Source of the DNA: an uncultured Pseudomonadota bacterium | GTDB taxonomy: Bacteria > Oederibacteriota > Muellerivitia > Muellerivitales > Muellerivitaceae | NCBI GenBank assembly: GCA_963843375.1 | Contig: CAWJKT010000003.1 | Span: 126,054-190,053 of the forward strand | Reading direction: 5' to 3' | DNA: 64,000 nt | Shown: positions 6,410 through 58,789 of the stretch, piece after piece | How positions within the stretch are numbered: the stretch's first letter is position 1 | Layout: each line of letters starts with the position of its first letter | Notes under the pieces: generated by a model | Told to the model about the DNA's origin: nothing | What the model saw: the letters and a program-made list of their open reading frames with translations, nothing else | The model's database searches: none | Made by a program: the position numbers and the translations under genes

Positions 6410-6423
6410 ACAAAGAGGAATCG

Positions 6424-6690: not shown

Positions 6691-6698
6691 GAATTTAA

Positions 6699-29345: not shown

Positions 29346-30611
29346 ATGAAAAAACTGTTTTTTTTATTTTTATTCGCGATACTTTTTTTTGCCTTAGCCC
29401 AATTTTTACTGCAAAAAAATCACGAAATTTTAGACGATAAAAGCGTAATTCACCTCACGATGTGGAATGTTCCGCCGAAATCCTTGCCGCTGGATCGGCA
29501 ACTTTGGGAAGAGACCGTTAGCCGGTTTGAAAAGGAAAATCCGGATATCAAGATTGATGGAGTCGAAAGGGAATATCAACCGGAAGAGTTCATCACGGTC
29601 ATGGCCGGAGGAAAAGGCCCGGATTTAGTGAAGGTTTGGGCTGGTTCCATTCAAACTCTCGCCTCGCTTGGTTTTTTGGAGCCAATTGATTCCTACATAC
29701 AAAATTGGACCCAACAGGATTTTATAAATCCTGTCCTTTGGCAAAGTACCCAAGTCGGAAGCCACTTATATGGCATTCCGGCGGACACTTATTTTTTATT
29801 TTTACTTTATCGCAAGGATCTCTTTGCAAAAGCCGGTTTGAATCCTGATACTCCGCCCGCCACTTGGGAAGATCTTGTGACCGATGCCAGAATTTTAACT
29901 CAAAGGGATAAAGGGCAATATGGACTTGGTCTCGTACCCAAAACATGGTATTTCCAGGATTTTGTTTGGCAAGCGGGGGGTGAAATGGTTCGCATGGTGG
30001 ATGGAAGGCCCCATGCCGCCTTTTCAGAGGCTCCCGCCGTCCTAGCCTTGAAGTATTGGAAGGATTTAAGATGGAAATATAATGTTCTTCAACCCGATGT
30101 TCTCATTCAAGAACCCGAACTTTTGCATTTATTTGCCCTTGGGAAAGTTGCGATGATTTTGGGGGTGGCCAACGAATTGCCCGCACTAATCAGCCGATAC
30201 AAAATCGATCCGCAGACTTTTGGAATCGCCCCATTGCCAGCTGGCCCCGCGGGCCACGCCGCTCATTTAGGGGGAAATATTTATGTCATCAATGCTTCCA
30301 CATCGGAGGAAAAGAAAAAAGCGGCTTGGAAATGGATCGAGTTCGAACTCTCACCTCTGAACCAATTATGGAAATGGGAAAGGATGCATCAGCTTAATAT
30401 GGTGATTTTTCCCGGTGCCTTTGGATCCTCAACGGAAGTCACTAATATCCCGGAATTTAAACTCGTCAAAGACGCTTTGGACACCGCCAAGTTCGAGCCC
30501 CATGTCAATGGATGGCCGCAAGTCCGGGATCTTTTGGATGAAGACCCTTTGCAAAATATCTTATTAGATCCGGAGGCGGATCCTCAAGAGCTTATTGACG
30601 GCTTTTGCTAA
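29346..30611 (+). CDS. Carbohydrate ABC transporter substrate-binding protein (possible frameshift near the C-terminus)
   Basis: FEKENPDIKI, LYGIP, YRKDLF..AGL.P..PP.TW and AAWKWI motifs. Confidence 0.88.
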   Translation: MKKLFFLFLFAILFFALAQFLLQKNHEILDDKSVIHLTMWNVPPKSLPLDRQLWEETVSRFEKENPDIKIDGVEREYQPEEFITVMAGGKGPDLVKVWAGSIQTLASLGFLEPIDSYIQNWTQQDFINPVLWQSTQVGSHLYGIPADTYFLFLLYRKDLFAKAGLNPDTPPATWEDLVTDARILTQRDKGQYGLGLVPKTWYFQDFVWQAGGEMVRMVDGRPHAAFSEAPAVLALKYWKDLRWKYNVLQPDVLIQEPELLHLFALGKVAMILGVANELPALISRYKIDPQTFGIAPLPAGPAGHAAHLGGNIYVINASTSEEKKKAAWKWIEFELSPLNQLWKWERMHQLNMVIFPGAFGSSTEVTNIPEFKLVKDALDTAKFEPHVNGWPQVRDLLDEDPLQNILLDPEADPQELIDGFC

Positions 30612-30708
30612 ACGAAGCGGACCGGGATATACTTTTGAAAGCACCCTCGTCCCCTTAAACCAAGTTTGAGAGAACACCCGATTTAGATTCGACAAGGAGT
30701 TTGGTTTA

Positions 30709-31980
30709 ATGCCGGAATACAAACCTTTTTCAATTTACGACGATGATGAAGAAAAAGATAAATCCATTGCGATTCCAAAAGAAATGGTGGATGGGGGAAG
30801 CGAACTCAACCTTGAAATAGAGGACGCTTTAACCTCTGAGGATGATAAAACCCGCAATGAATTGAATCGACAATTCGACGGAGCTACTTCGCTCGCCACG
30901 GAAAAAGCTTCCAGTTCTGAATCATCGCATTCCCTTGAACAAACACCTTTCCTTCAGGGTTTATCCTCGGAAAGCGTCGAGGACAGGGCCAAGGCGATAA
31001 TCCGAAAACGCCAGGATACCGGAAAAATTCGAGACCGCCGGAAAGTTGCTTCGATCTTTGACCGGCCCATCGAACCGGACAAGGCCATTCGACAAGGCCG
31101 CGCGGCTTGGCATCCATTGAGTTACCGGGCGCAAGCTTTTTGGTTTTTGTTACCCGCGTTGATTTTTTTTGGCCTTTTTTATTTCTATCCAATGATCAAA
31201 GGGTTCCAAATCAGTTTGACCCATTACAGCCCCTTGGGACAGAGTGTGGACGTTGGCTGGGACAATTACAGCAGGGCTTTTGAGGATTCACGTTTTATTC
31301 AAACAGTTGTCAACGCGACTTTCTTCACCTTGTTTTCCCTGGCCCTTGGACTGTGGCCTCCAATATTACTGGCGGTATTTCTGAACGAAATAAAATTTGG
31401 GAAGGGGCTTTTCAAAGTGCTTTATCTGCTTCCCTTTGTTATCCCCGCCATTCCTGCAGCCAATCTTTGGAAATGGATGTTTGACGAGGGGTTTGGAGTT
31501 TTTAACTCGATTTTGGCTTGGATAGCGCCTTCCCTCACTCCCGTTGGATGGTTGACCGATCCCCGATGGGCTCTTATCTCCATTGTGATCATGTTTGTTT
31601 GGAAAAATACGGGATGGTTCATGTTGATTTATTACGCCTCTCTTCAAAATTTGCCCGAGGAATATTATGAAGCCGCGGAGTTGGATGGGGCCGGTCTTGT
31701 AAAAAAGTTTTTCAACATCACCATACCCCATTTAGGTCCCGTCATTGGAATCTTGTCAATTATCCAGGTCCTCACCGCATTTCAGATATTCACCGAAGTC
31801 TACGTTATGACGAACGGAGGCCCAATGCACGCGACTGAAGTGATAGGAACTTATATTTACAAGACGGCTTTTGGGGCGATGGATCTGGGCTATGCTTCGG
31901 CGATGGCAATGCTCATGTTCGCCGCATTACTTGTTTTTACGATGATTCGATTCCTTCAGATGAGACAATCAACCCGATAA
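30709..31980 (+). CDS. Carbohydrate ABC transporter permease with a long soluble N-terminal extension
   Basis: EAAELDGA (EAA motif), FLLPAL, VG..NY, T.GGP, GYASA. Confidence 0.9.
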   Translation: MPEYKPFSIYDDDEEKDKSIAIPKEMVDGGSELNLEIEDALTSEDDKTRNELNRQFDGATSLATEKASSSESSHSLEQTPFLQGLSSESVEDRAKAIIRKRQDTGKIRDRRKVASIFDRPIEPDKAIRQGRAAWHPLSYRAQAFWFLLPALIFFGLFYFYPMIKGFQISLTHYSPLGQSVDVGWDNYSRAFEDSRFIQTVVNATFFTLFSLALGLWPPILLAVFLNEIKFGKGLFKVLYLLPFVIPAIPAANLWKWMFDEGFGVFNSILAWIAPSLTPVGWLTDPRWALISIVIMFVWKNTGWFMLIYYASLQNLPEEYYEAAELDGAGLVKKFFNITIPHLGPVIGILSIIQVLTAFQIFTEVYVMTNGGPMHATEVIGTYIYKTAFGAMDLGYASAMAMLMFAALLVFTMIRFLQMRQSTR

Positions 31981-32001
31981 CCGAAAGAATAGGTTGGAAT
32001 A

Positions 32002-32931
32002 ATGGAAAATTTTGAAACCGTGATTCAAGAAAAAGGCAAGGCGAAACAAGTCCGGGGCCTGTTTTCCTCCCAAGACAGGAAAAAAAAGTCAATTCAGCTT
32101 CTTTTGGTGATCTCCTTTATTTTGCTAACCCTGGGGGCTTTGATCACTTTGGCCCCGATTTTGTGGATGATATTGGGTTCTTTTAAAACTCCATCCGAAA
32201 TTTATTCCGTTCCCCAGTCCTATATTCCCGAGAACTTTAATTTTGATAATTTCCGGGAGGCCTTGCGATTGGTCGACTTCAAACAGTATTTCTTGAATAG
32301 TTTGTTCATGTGCGTTTGTGTTGTCCTGGGGCAACTTCTTATAAGTTCAATGGCGGCTTACTCCCTCACCAAACTGCGCATCCGCTTTGCGGGTGGTATA
32401 TTGCTGCTTTTCATGACTAGTCTCATGGTTCCTTTTGAGGTTTTGGTCATACCGCTTTATTTGATCATGAAATTTTTCCCTTTTGGCCAGGATTTTCAAA
32501 ACGTCAACCTGATTAATACTTATTGGGCCCTCATCCTACCGGGTGTATTTAACGCCTTTAGCATTATTGTACTTAAGGATTTTTTTGACTCCATCCCGAA
32601 TGAGATTGTCTACGCCGCCCGAATCGATGGCTGCGGTGAAGTCAGGGTCTTTTTCCGTTTTATTCTTCCGATGACGAAACCTATCATGTCCATTCTTGGT
32701 ATTTTTTCTTTTGTCACCACTTGGAACAGTTTTTTTTGGCCCTTGATTGTTTTAAACAACCCAAATTATTATCCCCTCGTTTTAGGCGTCCAAAAACTCA
32801 TTGATACAGGGGAACCCTGGAATGTCGTTATGGCTGCTCTTGTTTTGAGCACTATTCCTTCGGTCCTTTTACTTTTTCTCTTTCAAAAAACAATCATTCG
32901 TGGGATCGCTTATACGGGTGTTTACGGTTGA
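32002..32931 (+). CDS. Carbohydrate ABC transporter permease (MalG-type)
   Basis: AARIDGC EAA-like loop, WNSFFWPLI. Confidence 0.92.
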   Translation: MENFETVIQEKGKAKQVRGLFSSQDRKKKSIQLLLVISFILLTLGALITLAPILWMILGSFKTPSEIYSVPQSYIPENFNFDNFREALRLVDFKQYFLNSLFMCVCVVLGQLLISSMAAYSLTKLRIRFAGGILLLFMTSLMVPFEVLVIPLYLIMKFFPFGQDFQNVNLINTYWALILPGVFNAFSIIVLKDFFDSIPNEIVYAARIDGCGEVRVFFRFILPMTKPIMSILGIFSFVTTWNSFFWPLIVLNNPNYYPLVLGVQKLIDTGEPWNVVMAALVLSTIPSVLLLFLFQKTIIRGIAYTGVYG

Positions 32932-37087: not shown

Positions 37088-37362
37088 CCCATTGCCTTTT
37101 CTGGTCGTTTTCGGGCCCACAAGCTGAAGGCCGGGGAACGGTTTCATTTTCGAAACGCGTAAAATAAATTTTTCGTTCTTTCCGGTTTCCGAAAGGCTGC
37201 TTATTCATTGATCATCCGGGGTGTAATCTTCTCAAAGGGCCCGGGGGAGGGGAGATAACAAATTTAGCCCCTTTCACCCGCCCAAGTGTAAAATGCCAAC
37301 GTTCATTGAGGCTGAAGGCGGTAGGCAAGGTCTGGGTAAGTTTAAATTTTCGGAGCGTGACA

Positions 37363-38733
37363 ATGAAAACCTCACGTGTTAATCATAAAGGTTTGCTGGC
37401 CCGCCTACGTGACCCCTCGATTAAAAAGGTGAAGGTCGCTGTCACTGACATTGACGGTATCCTCCGGGGCAAGTACCTCCACAAAGACAAGTTCCTTGCG
37501 GCAGCCGAGAAGGGCTTTGGTTTTTGCAACGTGGTTTTCGGCTGGGATTCCTCCGACGTTTGCTACGACAATTCCCAATATACCGGCTGGCACACGGGCT
37601 ACCCGGATGCCCATGCGAAAATCGATCTGGCCACTTATCGACAAGTACCTTGGGACGACAAGGTTCCCTTCTTTTTGGGGGATTTCGAGGATCGGGTCGG
37701 GAAGCCCCTGGAGGTCTGCCCGCGACAATTGTTGAAAAAAATCATTTCCCGCTGTGTTCAGGCGGGATATCAGCCCATCGCCGGGATGGAATACGAATGG
37801 TTCAACTTCAAGGAAACGCCCCAGTCCCTCGCGGAAAAAAATTTCAGCCAACTCCAACCCTTAAGTCCCGGAATGTTCGGCTATTCCATCCTACGTGCCA
37901 CCTTAAACCAGCCCTTCTTCAAGGCCCTGATGGAGGAAATTCCTGCCTTTGGCGTTCCAATCGAGGGACTGCACACGGAAACGGGACCAGGCGTTCTTGA
38001 AGCCGCCATTCTTTATTCGGGAGCCCTTGAGGCGGGGGATCGGGGCGTGCTTTTTAAGACCGCAGCAAAAGAGATCGGCTATCGTTTCGGCATTTTGCCT
38101 ACCTTTATTGCCAAATGGAATTCAACCCTTCCGGGATGTGGGGGCCACGCGCACCAAAGCCTTTGGAATTCAAAAGGAGACAAAAACCTTTTTGACAGCG
38201 AGCAAGATCCTCATCGCATGAATGCCCTTTTCAAAAGCTACTTGGCGGGTCAAATTCGCTGTTTACCCGAAATTCTGCCTTTCTTCGCCCCTAATGTGAA
38301 CAGCTATAAACGCCTAGTAGACGGCTATTGGGCACCGACCAAGCCTCTTTGGGGGGTGGACAACCGCACCGTGGCTTTTCGGGTGATCCCTGGCGGCCCC
38401 AAGTCCACCCGCCTGGAAACCCGGGTGGGAGGCTCCGACACCAACGCTTACCTGGTTCTGGCAGCCTGTTTTGCCAGTGGGCTTTACGGTATTCAAAAAA
38501 ACCTATCATTAAAGGAAACAGCCGTAGAAGGTAGCGGCTACAAATCCGATACCCCGAGATTTCCCCGAAATCTTCAGGAGGCGACAGAAAAACTCGCGCA
38601 ATCTAAAATCGCCCGTGAAATCTTCGGCGAGGCTTTTGTTGACCATTTCGTCCGCACCCGCCAATGGGAATGGCGCCAGTTCCAGGATTCGGTTACGGAT
38701 TGGGAGCTAAAACGCTATTTCGAGATCGTGTGA
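37363..38733 (+). CDS. Glutamine synthetase-like gamma-glutamyl-amine ligase (GlnA4/PuuA-like)
   Basis: DIDGILRGK, EYEW, HTETGPG, H.HQSL, NSYKRL, NRT, RLETR; clustered with a C26 hydrolase and dehydrogenases; GGAG RBS before ATG 37363. Confidence 0.9.
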   Translation: MKTSRVNHKGLLARLRDPSIKKVKVAVTDIDGILRGKYLHKDKFLAAAEKGFGFCNVVFGWDSSDVCYDNSQYTGWHTGYPDAHAKIDLATYRQVPWDDKVPFFLGDFEDRVGKPLEVCPRQLLKKIISRCVQAGYQPIAGMEYEWFNFKETPQSLAEKNFSQLQPLSPGMFGYSILRATLNQPFFKALMEEIPAFGVPIEGLHTETGPGVLEAAILYSGALEAGDRGVLFKTAAKEIGYRFGILPTFIAKWNSTLPGCGGHAHQSLWNSKGDKNLFDSEQDPHRMNALFKSYLAGQIRCLPEILPFFAPNVNSYKRLVDGYWAPTKPLWGVDNRTVAFRVIPGGPKSTRLETRVGGSDTNAYLVLAACFASGLYGIQKNLSLKETAVEGSGYKSDTPRFPRNLQEATEKLAQSKIAREIFGEAFVDHFVRTRQWEWRQFQDSVTDWELKRYFEIV

Positions 38734-39878
38734 TGCCCACCGCCCGCTTCAGCTTTCCCACCCTTATTCATTTCGGTCCCGGCGTAAGGGCCAAGGTTGC
38801 CGGTTATCTTAAGGACCGGGGCCTCAAACGGCCCCTGCTCGTAAGCGACAAGGGCCTGGCCGCCCTGCCTGTGTTTTCACAACAGTTACAGGCCTTGAGC
38901 GCGGATGGGTTGGAGCCTGGAACTTTTTCAGGAATCTGGGGCAATCCGATGAAAACTCAGGTCACGGCGGGGGTGGAAGCCTATAGGGCGCATCGGGCAG
39001 ATTGCTTGGTAGGTCTTGGCGGTGGGGCGGCACTGGATGTTTGCAAGGCCATTGCCTTGATGGTGAACCATCCTGGGGACCTTTTTGACTATGAAGACGA
39101 AAAACCAGGGGCGCTGCCTTTTAAGTATGAAATACCCTTTTGGGTGGCCCTGCCCACGACTTCAGGAACAGGCAGCGAAGTAGGCCGAAGTGCGGTAATT
39201 TCGGACGACCAGACCCACCTTAAAAAAATCATTTTCGACCCCAAGCTTTTGGCGAGGGTGGTTTTCGCCGATCCCGAACTGACCCTGGGGCTTCCCGCGC
39301 CTGTCACCGCGGCCACCGGAATGGACGCCCTGACCCATTGCGTCGAGGCCTACCTGGCCAAGGACTACCATCCCATCTGTGACGGAGTTGCCCTGGAGGG
39401 TCTGCGCTTGGCTTCGAAAAGTTTAGCCCAAAGCGTGGAAAAGCCATCTGACATTGAAGCTCGGGGGTCCATGATGATGGCCTCCATGATGGGGGCTATT
39501 GCTTTCCAAAAGGGCCTGGGTGTGGTACATTCCTGCGCCCACGCCCTTTCTACCTTCAAGGATCTACACCATGGCCTAGCCAACGGCATCATGATCTCCC
39601 ACGCCCTTCCTTTTAACTTGAGCGCAGTTCCTGAGCGGTTCCGTTCCCTGGCCCAAGCCGTCGGCCTAAAGGATGAGAGTCCAGAAGCCTTTCTGGTTTG
39701 GTTGATAGCCCTCAAAAAGAAAATCGGGATCCCAGCCGGTCTTTCAGAAAAAGGAATACAAGCCGGTGACGCGAAGAGGCTTTCGGAACTTGCCTTTCAG
39801 GACAGCTGTCATCTGAATAATCCGCGTCCCTGCACCCAAGCCGACTTTGCGACAATCTTTTCTGAGGCAATAAAATGA
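38733..39878 (+). CDS. Iron-containing alcohol dehydrogenase
   Basis: GGGAALD, PTTSGTGSE, DALTH..E, H..AH and HHG; TGATG overlap with the upstream gene. Confidence 0.92.
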   Translation: MPTARFSFPTLIHFGPGVRAKVAGYLKDRGLKRPLLVSDKGLAALPVFSQQLQALSADGLEPGTFSGIWGNPMKTQVTAGVEAYRAHRADCLVGLGGGAALDVCKAIALMVNHPGDLFDYEDEKPGALPFKYEIPFWVALPTTSGTGSEVGRSAVISDDQTHLKKIIFDPKLLARVVFADPELTLGLPAPVTAATGMDALTHCVEAYLAKDYHPICDGVALEGLRLASKSLAQSVEKPSDIEARGSMMMASMMGAIAFQKGLGVVHSCAHALSTFKDLHHGLANGIMISHALPFNLSAVPERFRSLAQAVGLKDESPEAFLVWLIALKKKIGIPAGLSEKGIQAGDAKRLSELAFQDSCHLNNPRPCTQADFATIFSEAIK

Positions 39879-40612
39879 TGTTGAAAATCGGTCTTTCGGC
39901 ATGTTTTTTTCACTCTGATCCCAAGAGGCCGATCTTCAAAGGCAAAACCCTTCTTTACCTGGAGCAGTCCCTCGTGCGCTGGGTCATGGCTGAAGGGGCC
40001 CTGGTTTATATGATTCCCTCGCCGGCCCCGGATTCCCCGGTGACAATGGCTGATCTAGTAAGTCCGCTGGATGGACTTGTACTTCAAGGCGGTTCGGATG
40101 TATCACCCAAAAGCTATGGGGAGCAGGCTTTGACGCCCGAGTGGGAGGGGGATTATATACGCGATCAATATGAGATCGCCCTCATTAGCGAGTTTCGAGC
40201 TCAAGACAAACCCGTCTTAGGCATCTGTCGGGGGGCTCAGCTTATTAACGTGGCTTTTGGCGGTACCCTCTACCAGGACATCAAGACCCAGGTTCCCGGC
40301 GCTCTGGAGCATCGTAATTGGGATATTTATGATCAGAATTTTCACGGGTTGAAAATGGAAAGCGGTAAGGTGACCCGAGTCAACAGTGTGCATCACCAGG
40401 CGATTAAAGACCTGGGAAAGGGTTTGCGAGCCGAAGCCTGGTCCCAACCCGACGGCTTGGTAGAGGCCATCCGCGTCGAAAAAGGTCCCTACTGTTTCGC
40501 GGTCCAGTGGCATCCCGAGTTCCAGGATTCAAAGGATGCATCTCTTTTGGACGGAAGGATTTTTTTGCGTGAATTTTTGAAGATGGCTGAGGCGAACCAA
40601 ACTCATGCTTAA
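39875..40612 (+). CDS. Gamma-glutamyl-gamma-aminobutyrate hydrolase family (peptidase C26, PuuD-like)
   Basis: GG.DV.P..YG, LGICRGAQ, VNSVHHQ and VQWHPE. Confidence 0.92.
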   Translation: MMLKIGLSACFFHSDPKRPIFKGKTLLYLEQSLVRWVMAEGALVYMIPSPAPDSPVTMADLVSPLDGLVLQGGSDVSPKSYGEQALTPEWEGDYIRDQYEIALISEFRAQDKPVLGICRGAQLINVAFGGTLYQDIKTQVPGALEHRNWDIYDQNFHGLKMESGKVTRVNSVHHQAIKDLGKGLRAEAWSQPDGLVEAIRVEKGPYCFAVQWHPEFQDSKDASLLDGRIFLREFLKMAEANQTHA

Positions 40613-41975
40613 GATAATTAATCCCGCCAACGGAAAGTTACTAAAAGAGGTTCCCTCAGACGGTCCCTCCGAAATCGCTCAAAAGGCCAAGGATGCCCGA
40701 AAGACTCAAGGGATTTGGATGGCCAGGCCTCTTCAGGAGCGCCTTTCTATTCTTCGGAAATTCCGTGAATTAATCGTTGCAAAGAACGAAACCCTGGCCA
40801 TCACTCTTACGGATGAAGTGGGGAAACCCATCGCCCAATCCCGAAACGAATTGAAGGGTCTGCTGGAAAGGCTAGATTTTTTCCTCGAAAACACGGCTGT
40901 GGAACTTGCCGAGGAAAGGGTCTTTTCAAATGGTGAAATGACCGAAAAAATCCAGCACGAGCCATTGGGGGTGGTGGCCAACATCTCGGCCTGGAATTAT
41001 CCTTATTTTGTGGGGTCGAACATTTTCGTGCCCGCGCTTCTTGCGGGCAACGCGGTTCTTTATAAACCTTCGGAATTCGCAACCCTGACCGGTATGAACA
41101 TCGGGAGCCTGCTTTATGAAGCAGGTGTTCCAAAGGAAATCTTTGCTTTAATCGTCGGGGGCGGAAGCACGGGCGCTAACTTGCTTGAACAGGACATTGA
41201 CGGCGTCTTTTTCACGGGTTCCTACTCAACGGGCCTCAAGGTGGCCGAGGTCGCCTCGCGCCGCCTGATCAAGCTTCAATTGGAACTGGGAGGCAAGGAT
41301 CCAGCCTATGTCTGCGAGGATGTGAACGTCCACAACGCGGCCTTAAGCCTGGCCGACGGCGCTTTTTATAATACCGGGCAAAGTTGTTGCTCTGTCGAGC
41401 GCATTTACGTGCATTCCAAAATCTTCGAACGATTCCTGGAAATCTTTGTAAACGAGGTCAAAGGGTATCCCCTTGGCGACCCGCGGGATCAAAAAACCTA
41501 CATCGGAGCCATCACCCGTGAGGCTCAGTTGGATGTCCTGCAACGCCAGGTGGACGACGCTCTGACCAAGGGAGCCAAGCTTCATTGTGGGGGAAAACGC
41601 CTGCCGGGACCCGGAAATTTTTTCGAGGCGACTGTTCTTTCCAACGTCCACCATGGCATGGAGCTGATGCGCGAGGAGAGCTTCGGGCCCGTGATCGGCC
41701 TTCAAAAGGTATCGAGTGACGGGGAAGCGATAATGCTGATGAACGACACGGATTACGGGCTGACTGCGGGGGTTTACACAGGGGATCAGGTACGGGCCGA
41801 ACGCTTGTTGGCTCAAGTGGACGCCGGCTCGGCCTATTGGAATTGTTGTGACCGAGTCAGTCCACGGCTTCCTTGGTCTGGAAGAAAACATTCGGGTCTG
41901 GGCAGCGTGCTTTCCCACTATGGCATCAAAAGCTTCACACGGCCCAAAGCCCTGCACCTGCGGCAACCCAGTTAA
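40605..41975 (+). CDS. Aldehyde dehydrogenase
   Basis: AWNYP, FTGS, LELGGKD, GQSCC and EESFGP. Confidence 0.94.
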   Translation: MLKIINPANGKLLKEVPSDGPSEIAQKAKDARKTQGIWMARPLQERLSILRKFRELIVAKNETLAITLTDEVGKPIAQSRNELKGLLERLDFFLENTAVELAEERVFSNGEMTEKIQHEPLGVVANISAWNYPYFVGSNIFVPALLAGNAVLYKPSEFATLTGMNIGSLLYEAGVPKEIFALIVGGGSTGANLLEQDIDGVFFTGSYSTGLKVAEVASRRLIKLQLELGGKDPAYVCEDVNVHNAALSLADGAFYNTGQSCCSVERIYVHSKIFERFLEIFVNEVKGYPLGDPRDQKTYIGAITREAQLDVLQRQVDDALTKGAKLHCGGKRLPGPGNFFEATVLSNVHHGMELMREESFGPVIGLQKVSSDGEAIMLMNDTDYGLTAGVYTGDQVRAERLLAQVDAGSAYWNCCDRVSPRLPWSGRKHSGLGSVLSHYGIKSFTRPKALHLRQPS

Positions 41976-50163: not shown

Positions 50164-50179
50164 TGGCACGATGATTGCT
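50164..50179 (+). promoter_or_regulatory. sigma54 -24/-12 promoter of glnA
   Basis: TGGCAC-gatga-TTGCT. Confidence 0.8.
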
Positions 50180-50333: not shown

Positions 50334-51749
50334 ATGACCACTAAAGAAGTCATGGAGTTAATCAAGCAAAAAGATGTGAAATACGTGGATTTTCGGTTTA
50401 TTGACCTTCCCGGCATCTGGCAGCACACCACCTCACCGGTAAAGTTTTTCGACGAGGATGTTTTCAAGGACGGGAAAGGTTTTGACGGGTCATCCATTCG
50501 GGGATTCCAAGCCATCAACGAGTCTGATATGCTCTTGATTCCCGACCCAAACAGCGCCTTCATTGATCCCTTTTTCAAGGAGCCGACGCTGGTCATGACC
50601 TGTAACGTAATTGATCCGGTGACCCGGGAATCCTATTCACGAGATCCTCGTTATGTGGCTCAAAAAGCCGAGAAATACCTGGGAACCACTGGCATCGCAG
50701 ACATTTCCTATTGGGGTCCAGAAGCGGAGTTCTTCATTTTCAACGATATGAAGTTCGACCAGAACATGCACAGCGGCTATTACTTCGTGGATTCTACCGA
50801 GGCCTTGTGGAACACGGGCAAGGACGAGGGTCCGAATTTGGCCTATAAAATCCGCAATAAGGAAGGGTATTTCCCGGTGCCGCCTGCGGACAGCCAGATG
50901 GACATCCGTTCCGAGATGGTGACCCTGATGCAGCAACTGGGAATCCCGATTGAAACCCACCATCACGAGGTAGCCACGGGAGGCCAGGCTGAGATTGACA
51001 TGGTATTCGATTCACTGACTAACATGGCAGACAAGCTTTTGAAGTACAAATACGTAGTGAAAAGCGTTGCCCGTGAGCACAACATGGTGGCTACCTTCAT
51101 GCCAAAACCCCTTTTCGGAGATAACGGAAGTGGCATGCACGTTCATCAGTCTATCTGGAAGGGAAGCACCAACGCTATGTACGACGAAAACGGTTACGCG
51201 GGCTTCTCGCAGACGGGCCTTTATTATATCGGGGGTCTTCTGAAGCATGCCCGGGCCCTCTGCGCCTTCATTTGCCCAACCGTCAACAGCTACAAGCGTT
51301 TGACTCCCGGTTTCGAGGCGCCTGTGAACCTGGTTTATAGCCAGCGCAACCGCTCGGCGGCTTGTCGAATTCCGCTTTATTCAAAGAGCCCGAAGGCCAA
51401 GCGGGTTGAGTTCCGTACTCCCGACCCATCTTGCAACCCTTATCTGGCCTTTTCGGCCATGTTGATGGCGGGATTGGACGGAATCCAGAACAAGATCGAT
51501 CCTGGTCCTCCGCACGACATGAATCTTTACGAACTGGGAGCTAAGGAACTTAAGAAGGTAAAAAATGTGCCCAGTTCTCTGAACGAGTCTTTGGACGCTC
51601 TGGAGGAAGACCAAGAATTCCTGTTAAAGGGCGGGGTCTTTACGCCGGATTTAATCGAGGAGTGGATTAACTACAAGCGGAGCAAAGAAATCGACGCGAT
51701 CCGTTTGCGGCCTCATCCTTATGAGTTTGTGCTTTACCACGATATTTAG
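50334..51749 (+). CDS. glnA: Glutamine synthetase type I
   Basis: FDGSSI.G, GPEAEFF, HHHEVA, FMPKP.FGDNGSGMH, NRSA..RIP, adenylylation-type MNLY and RPHPYEF; AAGGAGG RBS. Confidence 0.97.
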   Translation: MTTKEVMELIKQKDVKYVDFRFIDLPGIWQHTTSPVKFFDEDVFKDGKGFDGSSIRGFQAINESDMLLIPDPNSAFIDPFFKEPTLVMTCNVIDPVTRESYSRDPRYVAQKAEKYLGTTGIADISYWGPEAEFFIFNDMKFDQNMHSGYYFVDSTEALWNTGKDEGPNLAYKIRNKEGYFPVPPADSQMDIRSEMVTLMQQLGIPIETHHHEVATGGQAEIDMVFDSLTNMADKLLKYKYVVKSVAREHNMVATFMPKPLFGDNGSGMHVHQSIWKGSTNAMYDENGYAGFSQTGLYYIGGLLKHARALCAFICPTVNSYKRLTPGFEAPVNLVYSQRNRSAACRIPLYSKSPKAKRVEFRTPDPSCNPYLAFSAMLMAGLDGIQNKIDPGPPHDMNLYELGAKELKKVKNVPSSLNESLDALEEDQEFLLKGGVFTPDLIEEWINYKRSKEIDAIRLRPHPYEFVLYHDI

Positions 51750-51777
51750 ATTTTGTTATTAAAACCTAGCCGCACCC

Positions 51778-51808
51778 AAGGCCCAATCTTTTGTGATTGG
51801 GCCTTTTT
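51778..51808 (+). terminator. Intrinsic terminator after glnA
   Basis: AAGGCCCAATC-ttttgt-GATTGGGCCTT plus T-run. Confidence 0.85.
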
Positions 51809-52006
51809 ATTAATTTTTTTAAAAAAAGAGTTGAAGGATTTTTTAACCTCAAAAAGGCTGGTTTTAATCAATCCATTCGTGTCGTAATTGCCAATAATGT
51901 TGATTAATACAAATAATGTAGTGATGGTTTAAATCGGTTTTATTTTGCAGGGCTCGGAAAACTAACAATTTACTAACACATTTTAAATATTTAATAATTT
52001 TTTTTA

Positions 52007-52022
52007 TGGCATGAGAGTTGCC
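52007..52022 (+). promoter_or_regulatory. sigma54 -24/-12 promoter of the permease-PII gene
   Basis: TGGCAT-gagag-TTGCC. Confidence 0.7.
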
Positions 52023-52070
52023 TTTTAACCCCCGACATTAAGTTCAGTTATTCCACCACAGGAGGAAATT

Positions 52071-54043
52071 ATGGCTAAGTCCGAAGCACCTCAGGCTCCA
52101 ACCGAGATCGCCCGGGTACTCGATTGGAAAGGGGCGGCCACCAACGCTATGGCGCTGATCGCGCCGGGCGCGTTTTTGTGGATCACCTATCAAGCACAAG
52201 TCGGTCTCACGGTCCCCAGCGGGGCCTCTTCCGCCAACGACATGTGGGCCGGGATTCTGGTGGCCTTGGGATTGGCCCTCTTGACGGCCCTCTCCTACGC
52301 CGAATTGGCCAAGATTTATCCGGAGGCGGGATTCGCCGGCTGCGTTTATTTCGCCGAGAAGGCCTTTATCGACGACCAGAAGCTCAAAAGGCCGGGACCC
52401 CAATCCATGGCCCGTATTGCCAAGCTGATCACCGGCTGGGCCGCTCATTTGTTCTACTGGGTTTATCCCGGCGTCATGGTGGCCTTCATGGGTACCTTGG
52501 CTTCTTACGTCTACGGGGCCATCACCGGGGGGACCATGACAATCATGTGGGAATTGGTGATTGCCTGGGTCTTCGCATTCGGCGTGGGATATATCGCCTA
52601 CAAGGGTGTGGCATGGTTCCACGGCGGCAAATATGTGGGGCAACATCATCCAATGGGTAACGCTGACGATCTTCAGCGTATTGGCTATCGCCTACCGGTG
52701 GATCAATCCGGATCACGCCACCAGTTGGGCCTTCAGCGGAGGGTTCGACATTGTGAAGTTTCACTCGGTAACAGGGGGTATTGGTGCAAGCGACCGTTGC
52801 CATCCTGATTCTCGTCGGATTCGAAAGCTGTACTTCCTTATCCGCCGAAACCAAGGAACCGGAGAAGAATATTCCGAAAGCCATCATTATCGCTTTGATC
52901 GTCCAGTGCGTATTCGCCTATATGTTCGAGTATTGGGCAGCCAACTACATGGTGAGTGAGAAGCTGACGGGGACCGTTCCAGTACCGGCTGTGGCCGCCG
53001 TTGCGGCCGTACCGGCAAGCGTGAGTGCCGCTGGAGTTACCACCGCCGCCGTCGCTGCGGTTGCCGCCGCGCCCGCGACCACCAAGATCGTCACGGGCTT
53101 TGATGCCATGGCCGCTTCCAGCGCTCCCATCGGGGATATGATGGTCCGCCTAGGAGACAGCTTTTTCGGGCATTTGGGTTTTATTATGATGATCATCATG
53201 GCGATCACGGTGGCTATCGCTGTCGTGGGAACCACCCTGGCCTGCTATAACACGGCTGTCCGCGTGACTGCCGGGATGGCCGAGGACCGGGAACTACCCG
53301 CCTTCCTGGGATTCATCCACTTGAAGAATAAATCGCCCCACACGGCGATCTGGCTTTTGGTTGCGGTTTCCTGCGTGATTGCCACCATCGGTTGCCAATC
53401 GGTGGACGGGTTGACCGGCATCACTCTGGCCTCCAACTTCGGGACCTTCGTTCTTTACGGCTCGGTCTGTATCTGGACCTTCATCGCCTACAAGAAACGC
53501 AAGGATTTCAACGCCTTCAAACACGCTTTAATCCCCTTGGGAGGGCTTATCCTGAACGTGCTGATGTGCTGGGGCGTCATCTACCTCTACACTATCGGAA
53601 ACGCGGACTCGCAGCTTGAGGCGAAGATCTTCTTCTATATCGCCGGCGGCTGGTTCCTGGTTTGGTTCCTCTACTTGTTCTTCACGTCCACGTTGAAATC
53701 GCATGGGATGAAGATGATCTCGGTGATCATCCGGCCGGATTCATTGGAAAACTTGGCGGATGCCTTGAATAAGGAAGAACTGGTCCAAGGGATGACGGTA
53801 TCCGAGGTGAAGGGCTTCGGCCGTACGAAAGGATCGAAGACCGACGACTCGCCCGCCAAAGTCAAGTTCCTGGACAAGGTCCGGGTGGATGTGGTGGTGA
53901 ACACATGGGATGTGCCCCATGTTATCGACGTCATGAAGGAGATCTTATACACCGGTAACAAGGGCGATGGAAAGATCTTCGTCCTTGAAACGACCGAGGC
54001 CGTCCGTGTCCGCACCGGTGAGACGGGTGTCGTAGCGGTTTAG
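52071..54043 (+). CDS. APC-family amino acid/amine permease fused to a C-terminal P-II (GlnB/GlnK-like) domain; frameshifts near 52610 and 52780
   Basis: SYAELA..YPEAG, GFESC..L..ETK.P.KNIPKA, R....MA.D..LP; in-frame MKMISVIIRP..GMTVSEVKGFGR..TG..GDGKIFV..VRVRTGE (53708-54043). Confidence 0.85.
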
Positions 54044-54070
54044 TTTTACTTCGCCAAAAGCCAAACCCTG

Positions 54071-54105
54071 AGCCCCTACGATCGATGATTGTGGGGGCTT
54101 TTTTT
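54071..54105 (+). terminator. Intrinsic terminator after the permease-PII gene
   Basis: AGCCCCTAC...GTGGGGGCT followed by T-run. Confidence 0.7.
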
Positions 54106-54130
54106 ATGCCCTCATTCAGGAGTTATTCCT

Positions 54131-54847
54131 TTGAAAGCACCTAAAGCTTTGATTCTTTGCATTGATGGCAATTCCTCCATCCACATTTTTCTAAGGACTA
54201 CCCTCGTTGCTAACGGTTACGCCTACCTGAAGGCTTCAACGGGAGAGGAGGGATTGATCACAGCCGTAATTCGTAATCCCGATTTGATTTTGTTGGAACT
54301 GGGGCTTCCCGACCTGGACGGCTTGGAAGTCATCTCCCGATTGCGGAAATCATGGAAAAAACCCATCATCGTCATTTCTGAACGCGACAGTGAAAAGGAT
54401 AAGGTTGCGGCCCTTGAAATGGGAGTTGATGACTACCTCACCAAACCTTTTAGCGCGCCTGAGCTCATGGCCCGCATCAGTGCGGCTTTAAGACGGACTC
54501 AAAGCGCTTCCGGCCCGGAGAAAGGTCAAATTTATAAATATGGGGATTTGAAGGTGGATCTGGCCCATCGCCGGGTTTGGCGCGGGAAAGAAGAGGTATA
54601 TTTGACCCGCCGGGAATACATCCTGTTCGCCACCCTTGTCCGGTATGCGGGTGAAGTGGTCACCCATCGAAATCTCCTGGCGGCGATTTGGGGAGAGGCT
54701 TTTGTCAATCAATCCCATAACCAGTCCGTGCGCATCAACTTGAGGGTGCTCATCAACCAATTGCGACAGAAGCTGGAAACAGACTCAGGCAAACCCCTCC
54801 ATTTCCAAAGCCATTACGGTGAGGGTTACCGGTTGCAGATCGATTAA
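54131..54847 (+). CDS. Orphan OmpR/KdpE-like response regulator with an atypical receiver
   Basis: PDLILLELGLPDLDG, DDYLTKPF, winged helix LT..EY..LRV.I.QLRQKLE..GYR; AGGAG RBS before TTG 54131. Confidence 0.88.
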   Translation: MKAPKALILCIDGNSSIHIFLRTTLVANGYAYLKASTGEEGLITAVIRNPDLILLELGLPDLDGLEVISRLRKSWKKPIIVISERDSEKDKVAALEMGVDDYLTKPFSAPELMARISAALRRTQSASGPEKGQIYKYGDLKVDLAHRRVWRGKEEVYLTRREYILFATLVRYAGEVVTHRNLLAAIWGEAFVNQSHNQSVRINLRVLINQLRQKLETDSGKPLHFQSHYGEGYRLQID

Positions 54848-55249: not shown

Positions 55250-55265
55250 TGGCACAAGGTTTGCT
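55250..55265 (+). promoter_or_regulatory. sigma54 -24/-12 promoter of the porin gene
   Basis: TGGCAC-aaggt-TTGCT. Confidence 0.8.
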
Positions 55266-55361: not shown

Positions 55362-56507
55362 GTGATGAGAAAGAAATTCAAGCTGTTCAGTTTCTTGGCC
55401 TCGTTCGCTTTAGCCGGTAGTGTCGCTCCGGTGATGGCGCAAACGGCGGCTGCTACACCGGCGGCAACGGCCGCGGCGGCAACGCCAACCGCAGTTCCGA
55501 CTCCGGTGGTGACGGTTGATGGGTTGGTGGATACGTACTTTTCTTACGATTTCAGCGATCCGAGTAAAGTACCAACAGCAGGAAATAATTCTTATTGGTA
55601 TAACAGCGCTTCTGATTCCTATACTTTAGGATTGGCCGAGGCGAAGATTACCGCCACACAAGGCGCGGCCAGCGGCCATTTGGTTTTGGCTTATGGCGAG
55701 GAAAATGGAGGGTTAGGAATTGGAACCGGTACTTCAGGATTTGATGTGCTTCAAGCCTATGTGTCCTACAATCCTGGACAATGGACCTTCAATTTCGGGA
55801 AATTCGTCACCTGGATGGGATATGAGGTGATTGAAAGTGTCGGCAATGCGAACTACAGCCATTCGCTGTTATTTAATGCCCTGCCATACTGGCATACGGG
55901 TGTCAGCGTAAATTACGCTCCCACCACGGTCTTCAACGCCACTTTTTATGCCACGGATGGAATCAATACCACTGCAGTTGGAGGAACCGGAGAGACACTT
56001 GGATTGGAAGCTGTCGTTGCGCCTAATGCCATGTGGTCCTTCACCGGAAACGGCCTTTTCGCCCCGATAGGTGGTAGCCAGGAAGCAGTTGTTGGCGAGG
56101 GGATCATTGTATACAAACCTTCGGCTTGGAGCTTTGCCTTGGACGGCGAGTTCGGAACTTCTGGCGTTGCTGCCGGAACGGCTCCCAGCTATTTTGGTGT
56201 CGCTTTGTACGGCAAATACCAAATTCAAAGCGATTGGGATGTAGCACTTCGTTTGGAATACATTAACGATAGTGCTGATGATTTGCTTGATCTTTATGGG
56301 AATAATCCTCTTTCTACTCCGGGTAAGGCTTTCACTGGCGACGAAGTTACTTTGACCATTGAGCATGACTTTATGCCTAACCTGATCGCCCGCTTGGAAG
56401 GCCGTGTGGATATGGCCAGCTACAACGGCGCTTCGGCTGATGTATTTGATGCTGACACTAGTTCCAGCCAGGCTACTGCTACTGGCAGCATGGCCTACAC
56501 GTTTTAA
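55362..56507 (+). CDS. Outer-membrane beta-barrel porin (BBP2/OmpL-like family)
   Basis: Signal peptide; G.VD.Y..Y, QAYV, GKFVTW.GYEVI, NYS.S.LF...P..HTG and R.E.R.D; terminal YTF. Confidence 0.82.
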   Translation: MMRKKFKLFSFLASFALAGSVAPVMAQTAAATPAATAAAATPTAVPTPVVTVDGLVDTYFSYDFSDPSKVPTAGNNSYWYNSASDSYTLGLAEAKITATQGAASGHLVLAYGEENGGLGIGTGTSGFDVLQAYVSYNPGQWTFNFGKFVTWMGYEVIESVGNANYSHSLLFNALPYWHTGVSVNYAPTTVFNATFYATDGINTTAVGGTGETLGLEAVVAPNAMWSFTGNGLFAPIGGSQEAVVGEGIIVYKPSAWSFALDGEFGTSGVAAGTAPSYFGVALYGKYQIQSDWDVALRLEYINDSADDLLDLYGNNPLSTPGKAFTGDEVTLTIEHDFMPNLIARLEGRVDMASYNGASADVFDADTSSSQATATGSMAYTF

Positions 56508-56618
56508 GGTTGGTTTGGGGGATCACCTTGCTCGGCTATGTGGCCAGGCAAGGAGTACGAGAGGGAAAATGATTTAGTAAAGAAGCCATAACTTCTCTCT
56601 CTCCTCCGGTTTGCAGCA

Positions 56619-56649
56619 GGGGGGCTGACCCGGCCAAGGTTAGCCCCCC
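56619..56649 (+). terminator. GC-rich hairpin after the porin gene; no U-tract, abuts the sequence junction
   Basis: GGGGGGCTGACC-cggccaa-GGTTAGCCCCCC. Confidence 0.5.
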
Positions 56650-56877
56650 AGGAACGGCTCGCGCCAGGTCCTTCATGAACGAGACGACGCCCTTGAGGAT
56701 GATCGGAATATTGGCAATCCCCCGGCTGCCGGCGGTCAGGGCGACGGTCTGCTTCGGCTTGATCGTCTTGTTGAGGCCCAATTTCATAAGGGCCTCGCCG
56801 CCACGGCCAACGGAATGTTGTTGAGCGCGTGGGCGGGGGAATTGTTGCTTCAAACGAACCATGTGAGGATAAGCCAT
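56648..56877 (-). pseudogene. 5' fragment of a LarA-N/DUF362-like protein, cut off at the junction
   Basis: M.R.KQ.FPRP..IKP..TVALTAGSRGIANI; similarity stops where P-F-L-V-P-A-M-G-S-H-G-G would be expected. Confidence 0.7.
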
Positions 56878-56894
56878 GAGAGTGTCCTTTTTTT

Positions 56895-57253
56895 TCAGCT
56901 AAGGCTAGTTGTTGTGGCACTTTCGGAAGGCGGTGGCGAGGACTGGCTATTCGGGGCGGGACCCCGCCCTCGACCATCTGAGGCGTGACGAATCGCGGCC
57001 CAATCGATGGCAGCTACCCAGCAGTGTTCTTCGTTGGAGTACGACACAATGCCGTCGACCAGCAATTCATCGAGGTGTGCCTTGTCATCAAGGTCCATCC
57101 GAGTACAAGGACAGCGACAAGCCCTCGCGCCAACTCGATGTGCTGCTGCCCAAATCTTCCATGGTGCCGACGCAATTCAAGCGGCAGACGGCCCTGAGAA
57201 TCAGCGTTGTGGAAGTCCGCGTATACTTTTTGCTTTACCATGCTGCCGCTCAC
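56895..57253 (-). CDS. Small conserved-looking hypothetical protein (frameshifted)
   Basis: VYADFHNADSQGRL in one frame continuing to ELLVDGIVSYSNEEHCWVAAIDW in another. Confidence 0.5.
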
Positions 57254-57357
57254 TTTCCATCATGTCTTTCTGGCAGGATTGGGAATGGTCGGCGTGAAAA
57301 GACGGCTTGCGTGATCGGGGCTCAGACTAATACGACTTTAAACAAGCGAAGTCCACG

Positions 57358-57557
57358 GTTGCCCCGTTAGGGGCATTTGATGGTAGCCCAGCGATTTATC
57401 GCTGGGGTTGGGGCCGCAGCGAGATCCCAGTCGCGTAGCGACGGCCGATTCCGAGTGCCACGGCTCAAGCGTCGCTACGCGACGCCCTTGGACCGGCATG
57501 CCTTTGTCCCCAGCGATAAATCGCTGGGCTACCATCAAATGCCCCTAACGGGGCAAC
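57358..57557. repeat. Nested inverted repeat (REP/REPIN- or MITE-like)
   Basis: Perfect 50-bp arms 57358-57407 and 57508-57557; inner 14-bp arms 57430-57443 and 57470-57483. Confidence 0.9.
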
Positions 57558-57579
57558 AAACCTCGCTTGTTTTAGGACG

Positions 57580-57900
57580 AGTAGAGTAGCGTGATGAGGA
57601 CTCGCGTCCAGAGGTTCTGACCACATCCCCCACCCGCCGCTCTGAATTACCCCAACAGTGGTCACACCAATGTAACTGTGGGGAATGGATGCGGCCAAAT
57701 CTTCCACAGATACTCCCTCCGTACATTCCACCGATGCTCCCGTTATGCCGCTGGGATGGGTTTGCGTTCCGGCGCCGCAAGTCCGCTGGGAGGTTTGCGC
57801 CCACCTCGGACAACCACGGCTTCATCCGGAATCCGGTCGACCGCTCCGCTCCTTTAGACATCTTATCCGATGTTGTTTTGTCGAAGTTCGACGTGACGTC
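57580..57900 (-). CDS. Hypothetical protein (frameshifted; boundaries approximate)
   Basis: VEDLAASIPHSYIGVTTVG, GDVVRTSGR and SPHHATL pieces lie in different frames. Confidence 0.35.
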
Positions 57901-58439
57901 AGGGAGCGGCGAGCCGCGTCGCCGGATCCGACGCCCCCTCACCGGAAAACGCGTCGGCGAAGAGCTTGGTGAAGCTGTTGACGAGCGTCAGATTTCGGGT
58001 CCCCCTCTTCGATGAGGACTTTCTCGCACACTGTCAAACCGAGGGCGATGGGGTGCGGGACCATTAATCTGGATGCCCTGAAAGGGAAACTGCACGCCAG
58101 CAACACCGCCGCCCGCCGCTGATAAACCGCGATTAGTCACACTGCTAACGACATTGCGTGTATTTCGCCTATTTTGCAAACAACCGTTTGAACGGTTCCC
58201 GCAAAAAAGCACCCGTCTTGTATGCCCAGTTGCGGTGAACGGAGCGTCGATTTGGCGGCAACTGACGGCTCCGGATAACGGCGGTCCAACTTTCAGAGGA
58301 CTTCACCAAAAGCCATAAATAATCCCCTGGCGTAATCGTCTCTGACCCGCTAGCTTCTCCAGAGTTTCCAGCAGCTGGCCTTCAGGGAAAGGACCCATGT
58401 CCACCTCAACCTTCGACTCTCCCATTCCTTTCATGAACA

Positions 58440-58660
58440 TCAGGGTCCGCTGCGATATAACCGACAGGGGCACAGACCTTCCCTTCGTCGCAGATAGTCA
58501 ACACGTTCTTGGTTGAGGGCCTTATCAAACCACAGCAAATGACCGCAATTAGGGCACGGTGCATCATGTGTGTCGATCGATGGTTCCAGGCGGAAGTCAT
58601 GGCCGCAAAAAACACAACGATTCGGCGTTCCCTCGGGTGTGCGCAAGAGATTGTCATTGA
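58440..58660 (-). CDS. Small zinc-ribbon protein of a type typical of Planctomycetes
   Basis: RTPEG.PNRCVFCG...EPS....DAPCPNCGHLLWF; N-terminus frameshifted. Confidence 0.6.
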
Positions 58661-58789
58661 TGCCCTCCGCGGCAGAACACAGATTTGCGAACCCCCCGGT
58701 GCAGTGTCAAAACCCAAAGCTCGAGATGGGACGTTCAGGCGGTTGCGGGTTCTCCGGGGTTTCGGAGTACCTCAACCCCGGCCACGACT

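Follow-up and report, generated by a model that had tools for sequence, protein, structure and literature searches.

P-II proteins are central sensors of carbon, nitrogen and energy status in bacteria, archaea and plastids. According to passages of a 2023 review (PMC10710835), the transporters under P-II control, namely AmtB, Amt1, NrtABCD, UrtABCDE and SbtA, all respond to a free P-II protein; the same passages state that P-II use is apparently limited to transporters able to be trimers, and that many fused transporter domains are still uncharacterized. Here we examine a 64,000-nucleotide stretch of DNA from an uncultured bacterium (contig CAWJKT010000003.1; the whole stretch is hereafter called the window), in which a candidate gene at positions 52071 to 54043 joins an APC permease to a C-terminal P-II domain. 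We conclude that this fusion belongs to a genuine, widespread and uncharacterized family, a putative variant of P-II transport control. Furthermore, we propose, with a probability of roughly 60%, that the encoded protein is a nitrogen-starvation-induced importer, wherein a 12-helix APC permease would be switched off by its own cytoplasmic P-II domain.

A P-II domain carried by an APC permease

The two domains reside within a single open reading frame (ORF) of 420 aa at 52781..54043. The permease profile PF13520 (AA_permease_2) matches residues 6-290 over profile positions 196-424 of 427 (E = 5.6e-16, 58.9 bits against a cut-off of 27), and the P-II profile PF00543 matches residues 310-414 over its full length, positions 1-102 of 102 (1.1e-21, 77.5 bits against a cut-off of 25). 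When scanned alone, the P-II domain scores 5.3e-23 and 81.7 bits against the same cut-off. There is no stop codon at the junction between the two, which bears out the central claim of a first-pass annotation made from the sequence alone. That annotation had also placed the last transmembrane (TM) helix, GGWFLVWFLYLFF, and an internal ATG at 53708 where we find them. A second, intact copy of the gene on another contig of the source genome (the paralogue) has an uninterrupted frame of 656 aa.

This internal ATG raises the possibility of two genes, with the P-II part translated separately. A Met codon is retained at the start of the P-II part, but neither a stop codon nor a Shine-Dalgarno-like sequence precedes it, just as the first-pass annotation had observed for the ribosome-binding site (RBS). 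Moreover, 116 of the 120 best clusters retrieved from sequence databases show an unbroken frame, and the spacing from TM12 to the P-II domain is identical in all 102 fused homologues (59-93% identical to the paralogue) over which we counted residue conservation. Separate translation is accordingly hardly credible, and the Met is most simply explained as a relic of the fusion.

The database search recovered 5651 proteins at E <= 0.001 among 8000 candidates scored. According to precomputed Pfam assignments, PF00543 is present in every one of the best 120 clusters and occurs together with PF13520 or PF00324 in 116 of them, so that the combination of AA_permease_2 with P-II that the first-pass annotation had put forward as new recurs widely. 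Three of the four clusters that lack the pair are fragments of 330-380 aa, the full-length fused forms being mostly 609-686 aa, and some source annotations already read ‘amino acid transporter/nitrogen regulatory protein PII’. A full-text literature search, outside of which lay P-II reviews in subscription journals, yielded no description of a P-II domain fused to an APC permease, in line with the first-pass annotation, nor of the permease-PP2C-kinase cassette described below.

A scan of one genome per species gave at least 596 pattern matches, at least 586 of which encode a relative. The best 80 loci were classified with profiles built from alignment A2 and with phmmer, using Pfam-named neighbors. 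Seven permease ORFs are cut by a contig end; among the 73 assessable loci, 28 are fused and 45 are unfused, and hence homologues are not always separate genes. The fused family is present in metagenome-assembled genomes (MAGs) labeled Planctomycetota, Spirochaetota, Omnitrophota, Nitrospirota, Fibrobacterota, FCPU426 and ‘delta proteobacteria’, and, to judge by record titles and run labels, it is frequently encountered in MAGs from peat, fen, soil and lake samples. An intact, full-length fused gene is present in 11 of 30 genomes related to the source genome, including seven of the 18 that belong to the same family; a broken copy is found only in the window.

Assignment of the permease part to the APC superfamily rests on the PF13520/PF00324 profile match and on a predicted LeuT-type fold. 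An AlphaFold2 (AF2) model of the paralogue, computed from 102 sequences, has 12 long helices (predicted local distance difference test, pLDDT, 81.6; predicted template modeling score, pTM, 0.78). The best Foldseek matches to this model are APC carriers of 13-17% identity (E 1e-11 to 1e-9, target-normalized TM-score (TMt) 0.69-0.77), with GkApcT (5oqt_A, E 1.2e-11, TMt 0.75) at the top. In the model, the TM12 helix (residues 511-544) leads directly into the first strand (546-553) of a predicted beta-alpha-beta-beta-alpha-beta core, the remaining elements being helix 555-567, strands 573-582 and 599-610, helix 611-625 and strand 635-639. The Ala/Val/Pro-rich insert to which the first-pass annotation drew attention lies where it was placed, between helices 263-292 and 369-404 and thus in the TM7-TM8 loop, which we take to be extracellular loop 4 of the APC fold. 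It is not special to this gene: because it measures anywhere from 16 to 57 residues in the 102 homologues, it is best regarded as a variable surface loop. A query of the ESM Atlas with the permease part yielded no clusters beyond those generically named ‘amino acid permease’, and thus no lead to the cargo.

The closest solved relatives of the P-II domain are E. coli GlnK chains, among them the chain from the AmtB complex (2ns1_B, 9.7e-23). We take the ATP/ADP site of these proteins to comprise T29, R38, K58, the G87-D88-G89-K90 loop, R101 and R103. Equivalents of R38, K58, G87, D88, G89, K90 and R101 are present in 102 of the 102 homologues, that of T29 in 101 and that of R103 in 82, and the window copy keeps every residue listed. 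By this sequence comparison, the P-II domain looks ligand-competent. In contrast, the T-loop has diverged from that of GlnK. The stretch from G35 to K58 varies from 21 to 28 residues, compared to 24 in GlnK, and a Tyr is found around the position of Tyr51 in only two of the 102 proteins. Because free P-II proteins that adjoin fused genes elsewhere keep the equivalents of both Arg47 (the residue with which GlnK plugs AmtB) and Tyr51, the fused domain looks like a ligand-binding P-II that has neither the uridylylation site nor the GlnK plug residue. The best P-II match among NCBIfam models, the GlnK equivalog PRK10665, reaches 90.9 bits against a cut-off of 181, which places the fused domain outside that equivalog.

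A shortened and variable T-loop, from which the equivalents of Tyr51, Arg47 and, in the clade of the window gene, Gln39 have been lost, could also mean that the P-II domain has degenerated into a structural module, which only oligomerizes or stabilizes the permease and senses nothing. Invariance of the nucleotide-binding residues in proteins that differ elsewhere to such an extent is not expected for a purely structural role, however, and we judge this explanation very improbable.

The first-pass annotation had further suggested that the P-II domain might force the permease into a trimer. A model of three copies of paralogue residues 540-656 scores 0.83, compared to 0.00 for the best control, and in calibration 20 of 30 solved pairs and one of 23 single chains attained this mark. 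At least 83% of contacts are shared between runs, with a partner pLDDT of 76 or more. This prediction concerns the isolated P-II domain, and because many P-II trimers have been solved, the score measures likeness to those structures and may echo them rather than provide proof.

Gene neighborhoods of fused and unfused relatives

The window gene resides in a nitrogen-assimilation setting, as is shown, within the reach of sequence annotation, by the adjoining glnA gene, by a sigma-54-type promoter of its own and by an rpoN gene encoded in the source genome. As the first-pass annotation recognized, glnA (with its PF00120 and PF03951 matches) precedes the permease, the element TGGCATGAGAGTTGC fits the -24/-12 spacing of sigma-54 promoters, and a terminator-like hairpin follows the gene. 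Although the promoter element is identical in the paralogue, its flanks are only 53-61% identical between the two copies. The pattern TGG[CT]A[CT]-N5-T[TC]GC has just three matches in the window, all on the plus strand, at 50164-50178, 52007 and 55250-55264, and each precedes a nitrogen-related gene, namely glnA, the permease and a BBP2 porin. This distribution suggests that the three separately promoted genes form a small nitrogen regulon. A further terminator-like hairpin is located behind glnA, at 51778-51805. The source genome carries one amtB gene followed by a P-II gene, on the contig of the paralogue and approximately 6 kb from it. No GlnD (uridylyltransferase) domain was found in this genome, which is 80% complete, and we did not use this observation as evidence. 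Rfam and tRNA scans of the window revealed two tRNAs only, neither of them near the gene.

Related loci fall into two types. Among the unfused loci, 44 extend 1000 nt or more beyond the permease, and in 42 of these a PP2C phosphatase gene follows it, the exceptions being the two archaeal loci; 42 extend 2200 nt or more, and 40 of these have a Ser/Thr kinase gene behind the permease. Neither a PP2C phosphatase nor a kinase is encoded in any of 27 fused loci, whereas 23 of the 27 fused loci that reach 500 nt or more past the permease have a free P-II gene directly behind it. AmtB is encoded in 14 of the 28 fused loci, typically in P-II-AmtB repeats that end with glutamine synthetase, and glutamine synthetase accompanies 27 of the 45 unfused permeases. 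Genes of the BBP2 porin family accompany 4 of the 28 fused permeases and 13 of the 45 unfused ones. Fourteen of the 28 fused permeases, or the operons that contain them, are immediately preceded by a sigma-54-type site, the overall frequency of such matches being 0.030 per kb. Since the PP2C gene follows nearly every unfused permease and no fused one, the P-II fusion and the kinase/phosphatase pair would be alternatives acting on the same transporter.

This dichotomy follows the phylogeny. We placed 76 permease domains in a quick maximum-likelihood tree, where a single clade (SH-aLRT 100) contains all 29 fused rows and one further row, L020, the ORF of which is truncated at the end of its contig. 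The nearest neighbors of the clade are unfused permeases of the PP2C/kinase type. The fusion is thus an old, conserved architecture that arose once, apparently from a phospho-regulated ancestor.

The unfused relatives display a conserved operon of their own, consisting of genes for a BBP2 porin, the permease, a PP2C phosphatase, a Ser/Thr kinase and glutamine synthetase (L022, L039-L078, L083-L085 and L088; for example, L066:4851-10913), in MAGs labeled Ignavibacteriota, Bacteroidota, Chloroflexota, Acidobacteriota, Gemmatimonadota, NC10 and Binatia. Five loci from Syntrophobacteraceae and Thermacetogeniaceae MAGs (L064, L075, L077, L080 and L081) exhibit a third arrangement, in which genes for a free P-II protein and a Ser/Thr kinase, in this order, follow those for the permease and PP2C. 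The T-loop base of this free P-II is a Cys-containing GCGLQKGHT sequence, and there is no Tyr51 equivalent. We considered a phosphorylatable T-loop of the Ser49 type for these proteins and dropped the idea, as they contain no RGSEY-like motif.

Eight of the 28 fused and four of the 45 unfused loci have, between the sigma-54-type site and the permease and adjacent to the latter, a conserved ORF of approximately 240-300 aa that matches no Pfam family; no counterpart of this approximately 260-aa ORF was found in the window. In one related MAG (L012:1-3701), the fused permease is followed by a glnA gene 91.5% identical to that of the window, an order inverted relative to 50334-54043. In the closest related locus (L009), the fused gene is flanked by two histidine kinase/response regulator pairs (609-2485 and 5169-7451), the kinases being of the DUF4118 (KdpD) type, and Kup or Kdp potassium transporter genes are located near the permease in L019, L038 and L079.

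The free P-II genes downstream of most fused permeases, which are present even where no amtB follows, are relevant to a different reading in which the signal flows in reverse. The permease would then be a sensor (‘transceptor’) or a membrane anchor, and its P-II domain would report substrate or occupancy to soluble partners, either through mixed trimers with the GlnK-type P-II encoded downstream or by holding P-II targets at the membrane. Mixed trimers of GlnB and GlnK occur in E. coli, and Arg47 and Tyr51 equivalents, absent from the fused domain, are retained in the free proteins. Nevertheless, no free P-II gene lies beside the fusion in the source genome or in its closest relatives (L009, L010, L012 and L018), and the permease keeps the sequence features of a working APC carrier along its whole length, with about 100 invariant positions. 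We therefore regard reverse signal flow as improbable and continue to favor a P-II domain that acts on its own transporter.

Two extra bases in the window copy

As assembled, the window copy is not the single in-frame gene that the first-pass annotation had described. The span 52071..54043 measures 1973 nt, which is no multiple of three, and is covered by three overlapping plus-strand ORFs in three different frames, 52071..52808 (245 aa), 52561..52959 (132 aa) and 52781..54043. Two frameshifts, both overlooked previously, are responsible, and both are located in the N-terminal half of the gene, away from the permease/P-II junction. In a MAFFT alignment of the DNA of both copies, the window copy has exactly two extra bases within the gene, at 52614 and at 52772, the latter adjoining a GGGGG run. 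Once both are discounted, 181 + 53 + 422 codons yield 656, the length of the paralogue. The middle stretch, read in its own frame, matches paralogue residues 182-237 with 86% identity. Coordinates of the gene parts and of neighboring features are collected in Table 1.

Table 1. Positions of the fusion gene, its parts and its neighbors in the window, with examples of the upstream ORF from related loci
Feature	Position	Strand	Basis or remark
glnA, glutamine synthetase type I, upstream neighbor	50334..51749	+	PF00120 1.9e-133, PF03951; own sigma-54-type site at 50164
Sigma-54-type -24/-12 element TGGCATGAGAGTTGC	52007..52021	+	GG-N10-GC spacing; 15/15 identical in paralogue
RBS AGGAGG	52060..52065	+	5 nt 5' of ATG 52071; kept in paralogue
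Permease piece 1, 181 codons, TM1-TM4, frame 1	52071..52613	+	protein 94% identical to paralogue residues 1-181; sense lost past 52613
First extra base, frameshift +1	52613..52614	+	gap in paralogue at 52614; 1 base fewer at 52613 in X1, X2 and X3 contigs
Permease piece 2, 53 codons, frame 2, TM5 region	52615..52773	+	within ORF 52561..52959; profile positions 179-233
G5 run with second extra base, frameshift +1	52774..52778	+	paralogue gap nearby; 1 base fewer at 52774 in X1, X2 and X3 contigs
Permease piece 3 (TM6-TM12) and P-II domain, frame 3, stop TAG	52775..54043	+	ORF 52781..54043; PF13520, PF00543; 97% identical to paralogue
Ala/Val/Pro-rich low-complexity insert, TM7-TM8 loop (extracellular loop 4)	52976..53086	+	translation; AF2 model
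TM12 helix, continuing straight into P-II domain	53603..53704	+	AF2 model: helix 511-544, then strand 546-553
P-II domain, 111 aa	53708..54040	+	PF00543
P-II T-loop, 17 residues, acidic tip, no Tyr51 or Arg47 equivalent	53819..53869	+	alignment to GlnK
Terminator-like hairpin and T run	54070..54107	+	hairpin at 54070-54100; 14 pairs, 7 G-C, then TTTTTAT
OmpR-type response regulator, downstream neighbor	54089..54847	+	PF00072, PF00486
BBP2 (OmpL-like) porin	55362..56507	+	PF07642 2.7e-47; sigma-54-type site at 55250
Upstream ORF, examples from related loci	L011:5167-5943, L014:5022-5798, L019:5041-5940, L024:489-1199, L034:5080-5805		

Among 12 public metagenome runs listed, none is an RNA data set, and contigs from 4 of them were compared with this stretch; runs X1 and X3 are from one study and X2 is from another, while X6 does not cover the two insertion sites. 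Both extra bases are absent from the contigs of all three runs that cover the sites, and hence in two studies. These contigs (records 2, 11 and 19) are 98.4-98.8% identical to the window, with 6-8 other differences over 456-531 nt; for comparison, the corresponding divergence between the paralogue and the window copy is approximately 12-15%. When 63 window ORFs were searched with Pfam, other interrupted genes came to light. A PAS-GGDEF-EAL gene is split into three overlapping ORFs (18463-20987, plus strand; GGDEF profile positions 1-88 and 83-161), an RNB ribonuclease gene is split into two (21425-22637, minus strand; profile positions 55-188 and 182-325), and an M16 peptidase gene is truncated (23950-24525, plus strand). 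Because near-identical contigs lack both bases and because two other window genes are split in a similar manner, we consider it quite probable that the two single-base insertions are consensus errors of an indel-prone assembly, which comprises 32 contigs with 4% contamination. If so, the real window gene encodes 656 residues, like its paralogue. The frameshift ahead of 53708 that the first-pass annotation had named as fatal to its claim is thus formally present in the assembly, but it leaves the biology of the fusion standing, given the near-identical contigs without the shifts and the homologues fused at 28 assessable loci. More generally, since the assembly looks indel-prone, any ‘broken gene’ in this genome needs read support.

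Two facts weigh on the other side. The best share of sampled words in any run is 0.67, such that none is demonstrably the source sample, and the first insertion lies outside any homopolymer. Consequently, the window copy might be a genuine, recently inactivated and strain-specific pseudogene, with the intact paralogue on the other contig doing the work. The assembly as given does carry two frameshifts 160 nt apart, the second copy is 97% identical over the C-terminal 420 residues, and the contigs without the shifts come from relatives rather than from the same strain, because they differ at 6-8 other positions. Yet the stretch between the shifts still encodes a conserved protein in its own frame, and the gene shows no further stop or deletion and retains an intact promoter, RBS and terminator. 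The second shift, moreover, consists of one G added to a G-run, and the other split genes lie in the same 64 kb. On balance, an inactivated gene appears unlikely, and errors of the consensus remain the explanation that we prefer.

The two copies are mosaic with respect to each other. Identity is 85-88% across the 5' 0.86 kb, as far as 52930, and 94-99.5% across the 3' 1.1 kb (52931-54015); it drops again in the last 28 nt, and the flanks are unrelated apart from the 15-nt promoter element. This pattern suggests either gene conversion between the paralogues or a chimeric assembly of mixed strains. Because the ends of the X1 and X3 contigs run on into the 3' flank of the paralogue (loose ends at 54015), both forms of the gene occur together elsewhere as well.

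Other parts of the window contain additional features. A glutamine synthetase-like gene without the N-terminal glutamine synthetase domain (37306-38730, plus strand) heads a cluster (37306-41972) with genes for an Fe-alcohol dehydrogenase, a peptidase C26 of the gamma-glutamyl hydrolase type and an aldehyde dehydrogenase; an ABC transporter is encoded at 29346-32928. We take the cluster to resemble the gamma-glutamylation (Puu-type) route of polyamine use. It lies approximately 10 kb upstream of the permease, and a linkage between the two is not obvious. ORFs of 1713 aa (7335-12473) and 479 aa (12496-13932), both on the plus strand, have no Pfam match at E <= 1e-4. The approximately 2.2 kb at 56507-58717 holds just short overlapping ORFs on both strands with no Pfam or Rfam match, and could be a badly frameshifted gene or non-coding DNA.

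A proposed mechanism and its relation to known systems

We envision that nitrogen starvation would switch the gene on and that the permease would then import a nitrogen source, either an amino acid or an amine. The tethered P-II domain would bind ATP/ADP and probably 2-oxoglutarate, and upon a change in nitrogen or energy status would lock or block its own transporter at the cytoplasmic face, as a built-in version of free GlnK acting on AmtB or of SbtB acting on SbtA. Control would be exerted by ligand alone, with no uridylylation, because the tyrosine that would be modified is absent. The P-II domains probably trimerize, as P-II ligand sites lie between subunits, and might thereby draw three permeases together. 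Since the T-loop is acidic and contains no Arg, a conformational lock of the SbtB-SbtA kind is more likely than a plug of the GlnK type. That the T-loop faces the permease is our assumption, made from P-II topology alone.

Several observations count against this proposal. First, in the clade of the window gene the T-loop is two residues shorter than that of GlnK and has an acidic tip, with Asp in place of Arg47 and Ala in place of Tyr51; because the T-loop differs, the GlnK mechanism is not simply transferable. Second, position 39, where Gln is presumably a ligand of 2-oxoglutarate and Mg, is Q in 54, T in 46 (including the window gene) and S in two of the 102 homologues. Third, among solved APC chains none is close in sequence, the best match being 6e-4, and the window pieces, when scanned against NCBIfam transporter models (BcaP, FrlA, urea-carboxylase permease, CAT, LAT and others), reach at best 52.8 bits against cut-offs of 556-800. 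Fourth, solved APC transporters are monomers or dimers, and we know of no APC carriers that are trimers. Finally, the contrast between fused and unfused loci tracks the tree. Because the fusion was one event, this contrast counts as a single evolutionary observation rather than as 70 independent ones.

A more specific version of the hypothesis concerns the cargo. The protein might be a dedicated nitrogen-scavenging carrier for ammonium or a small amine cation rather than for ordinary amino acids, organized by P-II as a trimer, for which the PP2C/Ser-Thr kinase switch would be ancestral and would have been replaced once by the P-II fusion. Three leads point in this direction: the constant linkage with glutamine synthetase, AmtB-GlnK and porins; an aromatic/His-rich motif in TM3 that is invariant in the 102 homologues; and the presence of KimA, an APC-superfamily carrier that we take to transport K+, among the Foldseek fold matches. 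We view this version as a long shot. If it were true, the protein would be the first LeuT-fold transporter gated by P-II and would provide an Amt-independent route for the uptake of reduced nitrogen.

A P-II domain mounted on a LeuT-fold carrier at fixed spacing would bring the largest class of secondary carriers for amino acids and amines under P-II control. In such a 1:1 tethered system, the coupling of sensor and transporter could be measured with no additional regulatory protein present. The architecture also prompts one to ask whether APC carriers can assemble as trimers. The phosphatase/kinase pair that takes the place of P-II in the sister permeases suggests that two alternative switches exist for one uptake system. 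Given its frequency in MAGs from the habitats named above, the fused family may also play a part in nitrogen scavenging where nitrogen is scarce.

Comparison with four known or related systems places these findings in context. Like GlnK in its complex with AmtB (E. coli, 2ns1), the fused domain has a canonical P-II fold with conserved nucleotide-site residues, its partner is a membrane protein with a proposed role in nitrogen uptake under a putatively nitrogen-regulated (sigma-54-type) promoter, and amtB-glnK pairs lie beside half of the fused genes. Unlike GlnK, it is covalently attached, its partner is an APC/LeuT-fold carrier rather than an Amt channel, and its T-loop carries neither the Arg47 plug nor the Tyr51 uridylylation site. 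The APC amino-acid transporters GkApcT (5oqt), BasC (6f2g), ApcT (3gia), AdiC (5j4n) and LAT1 share the predicted fold and the AA_permease_2 and AA_permease matches, but have neither the C-terminal P-II domain nor the variable insert in extracellular loop 4, and are only 13-17% identical. The unfused sister permeases of the permease-PP2C-Ser/Thr kinase-glutamine synthetase cassette belong to the same permease family (40-55% identical) and share the BBP2 porin, glutamine synthetase and sigma-54 activators as neighbors, although they have the phosphatase/kinase pair instead of a P-II domain. Finally, the proposed mechanism resembles the control of SbtA by SbtB and of NrtABCD and UrtABCDE in cyanobacteria, where, in passages of the review cited above, P-II-family proteins inhibit non-Amt transporters in a ligand-dependent manner at the cytoplasmic face; in those systems, within the same passages, the P-II protein is free and no transporter is an APC member (PMC10710835).

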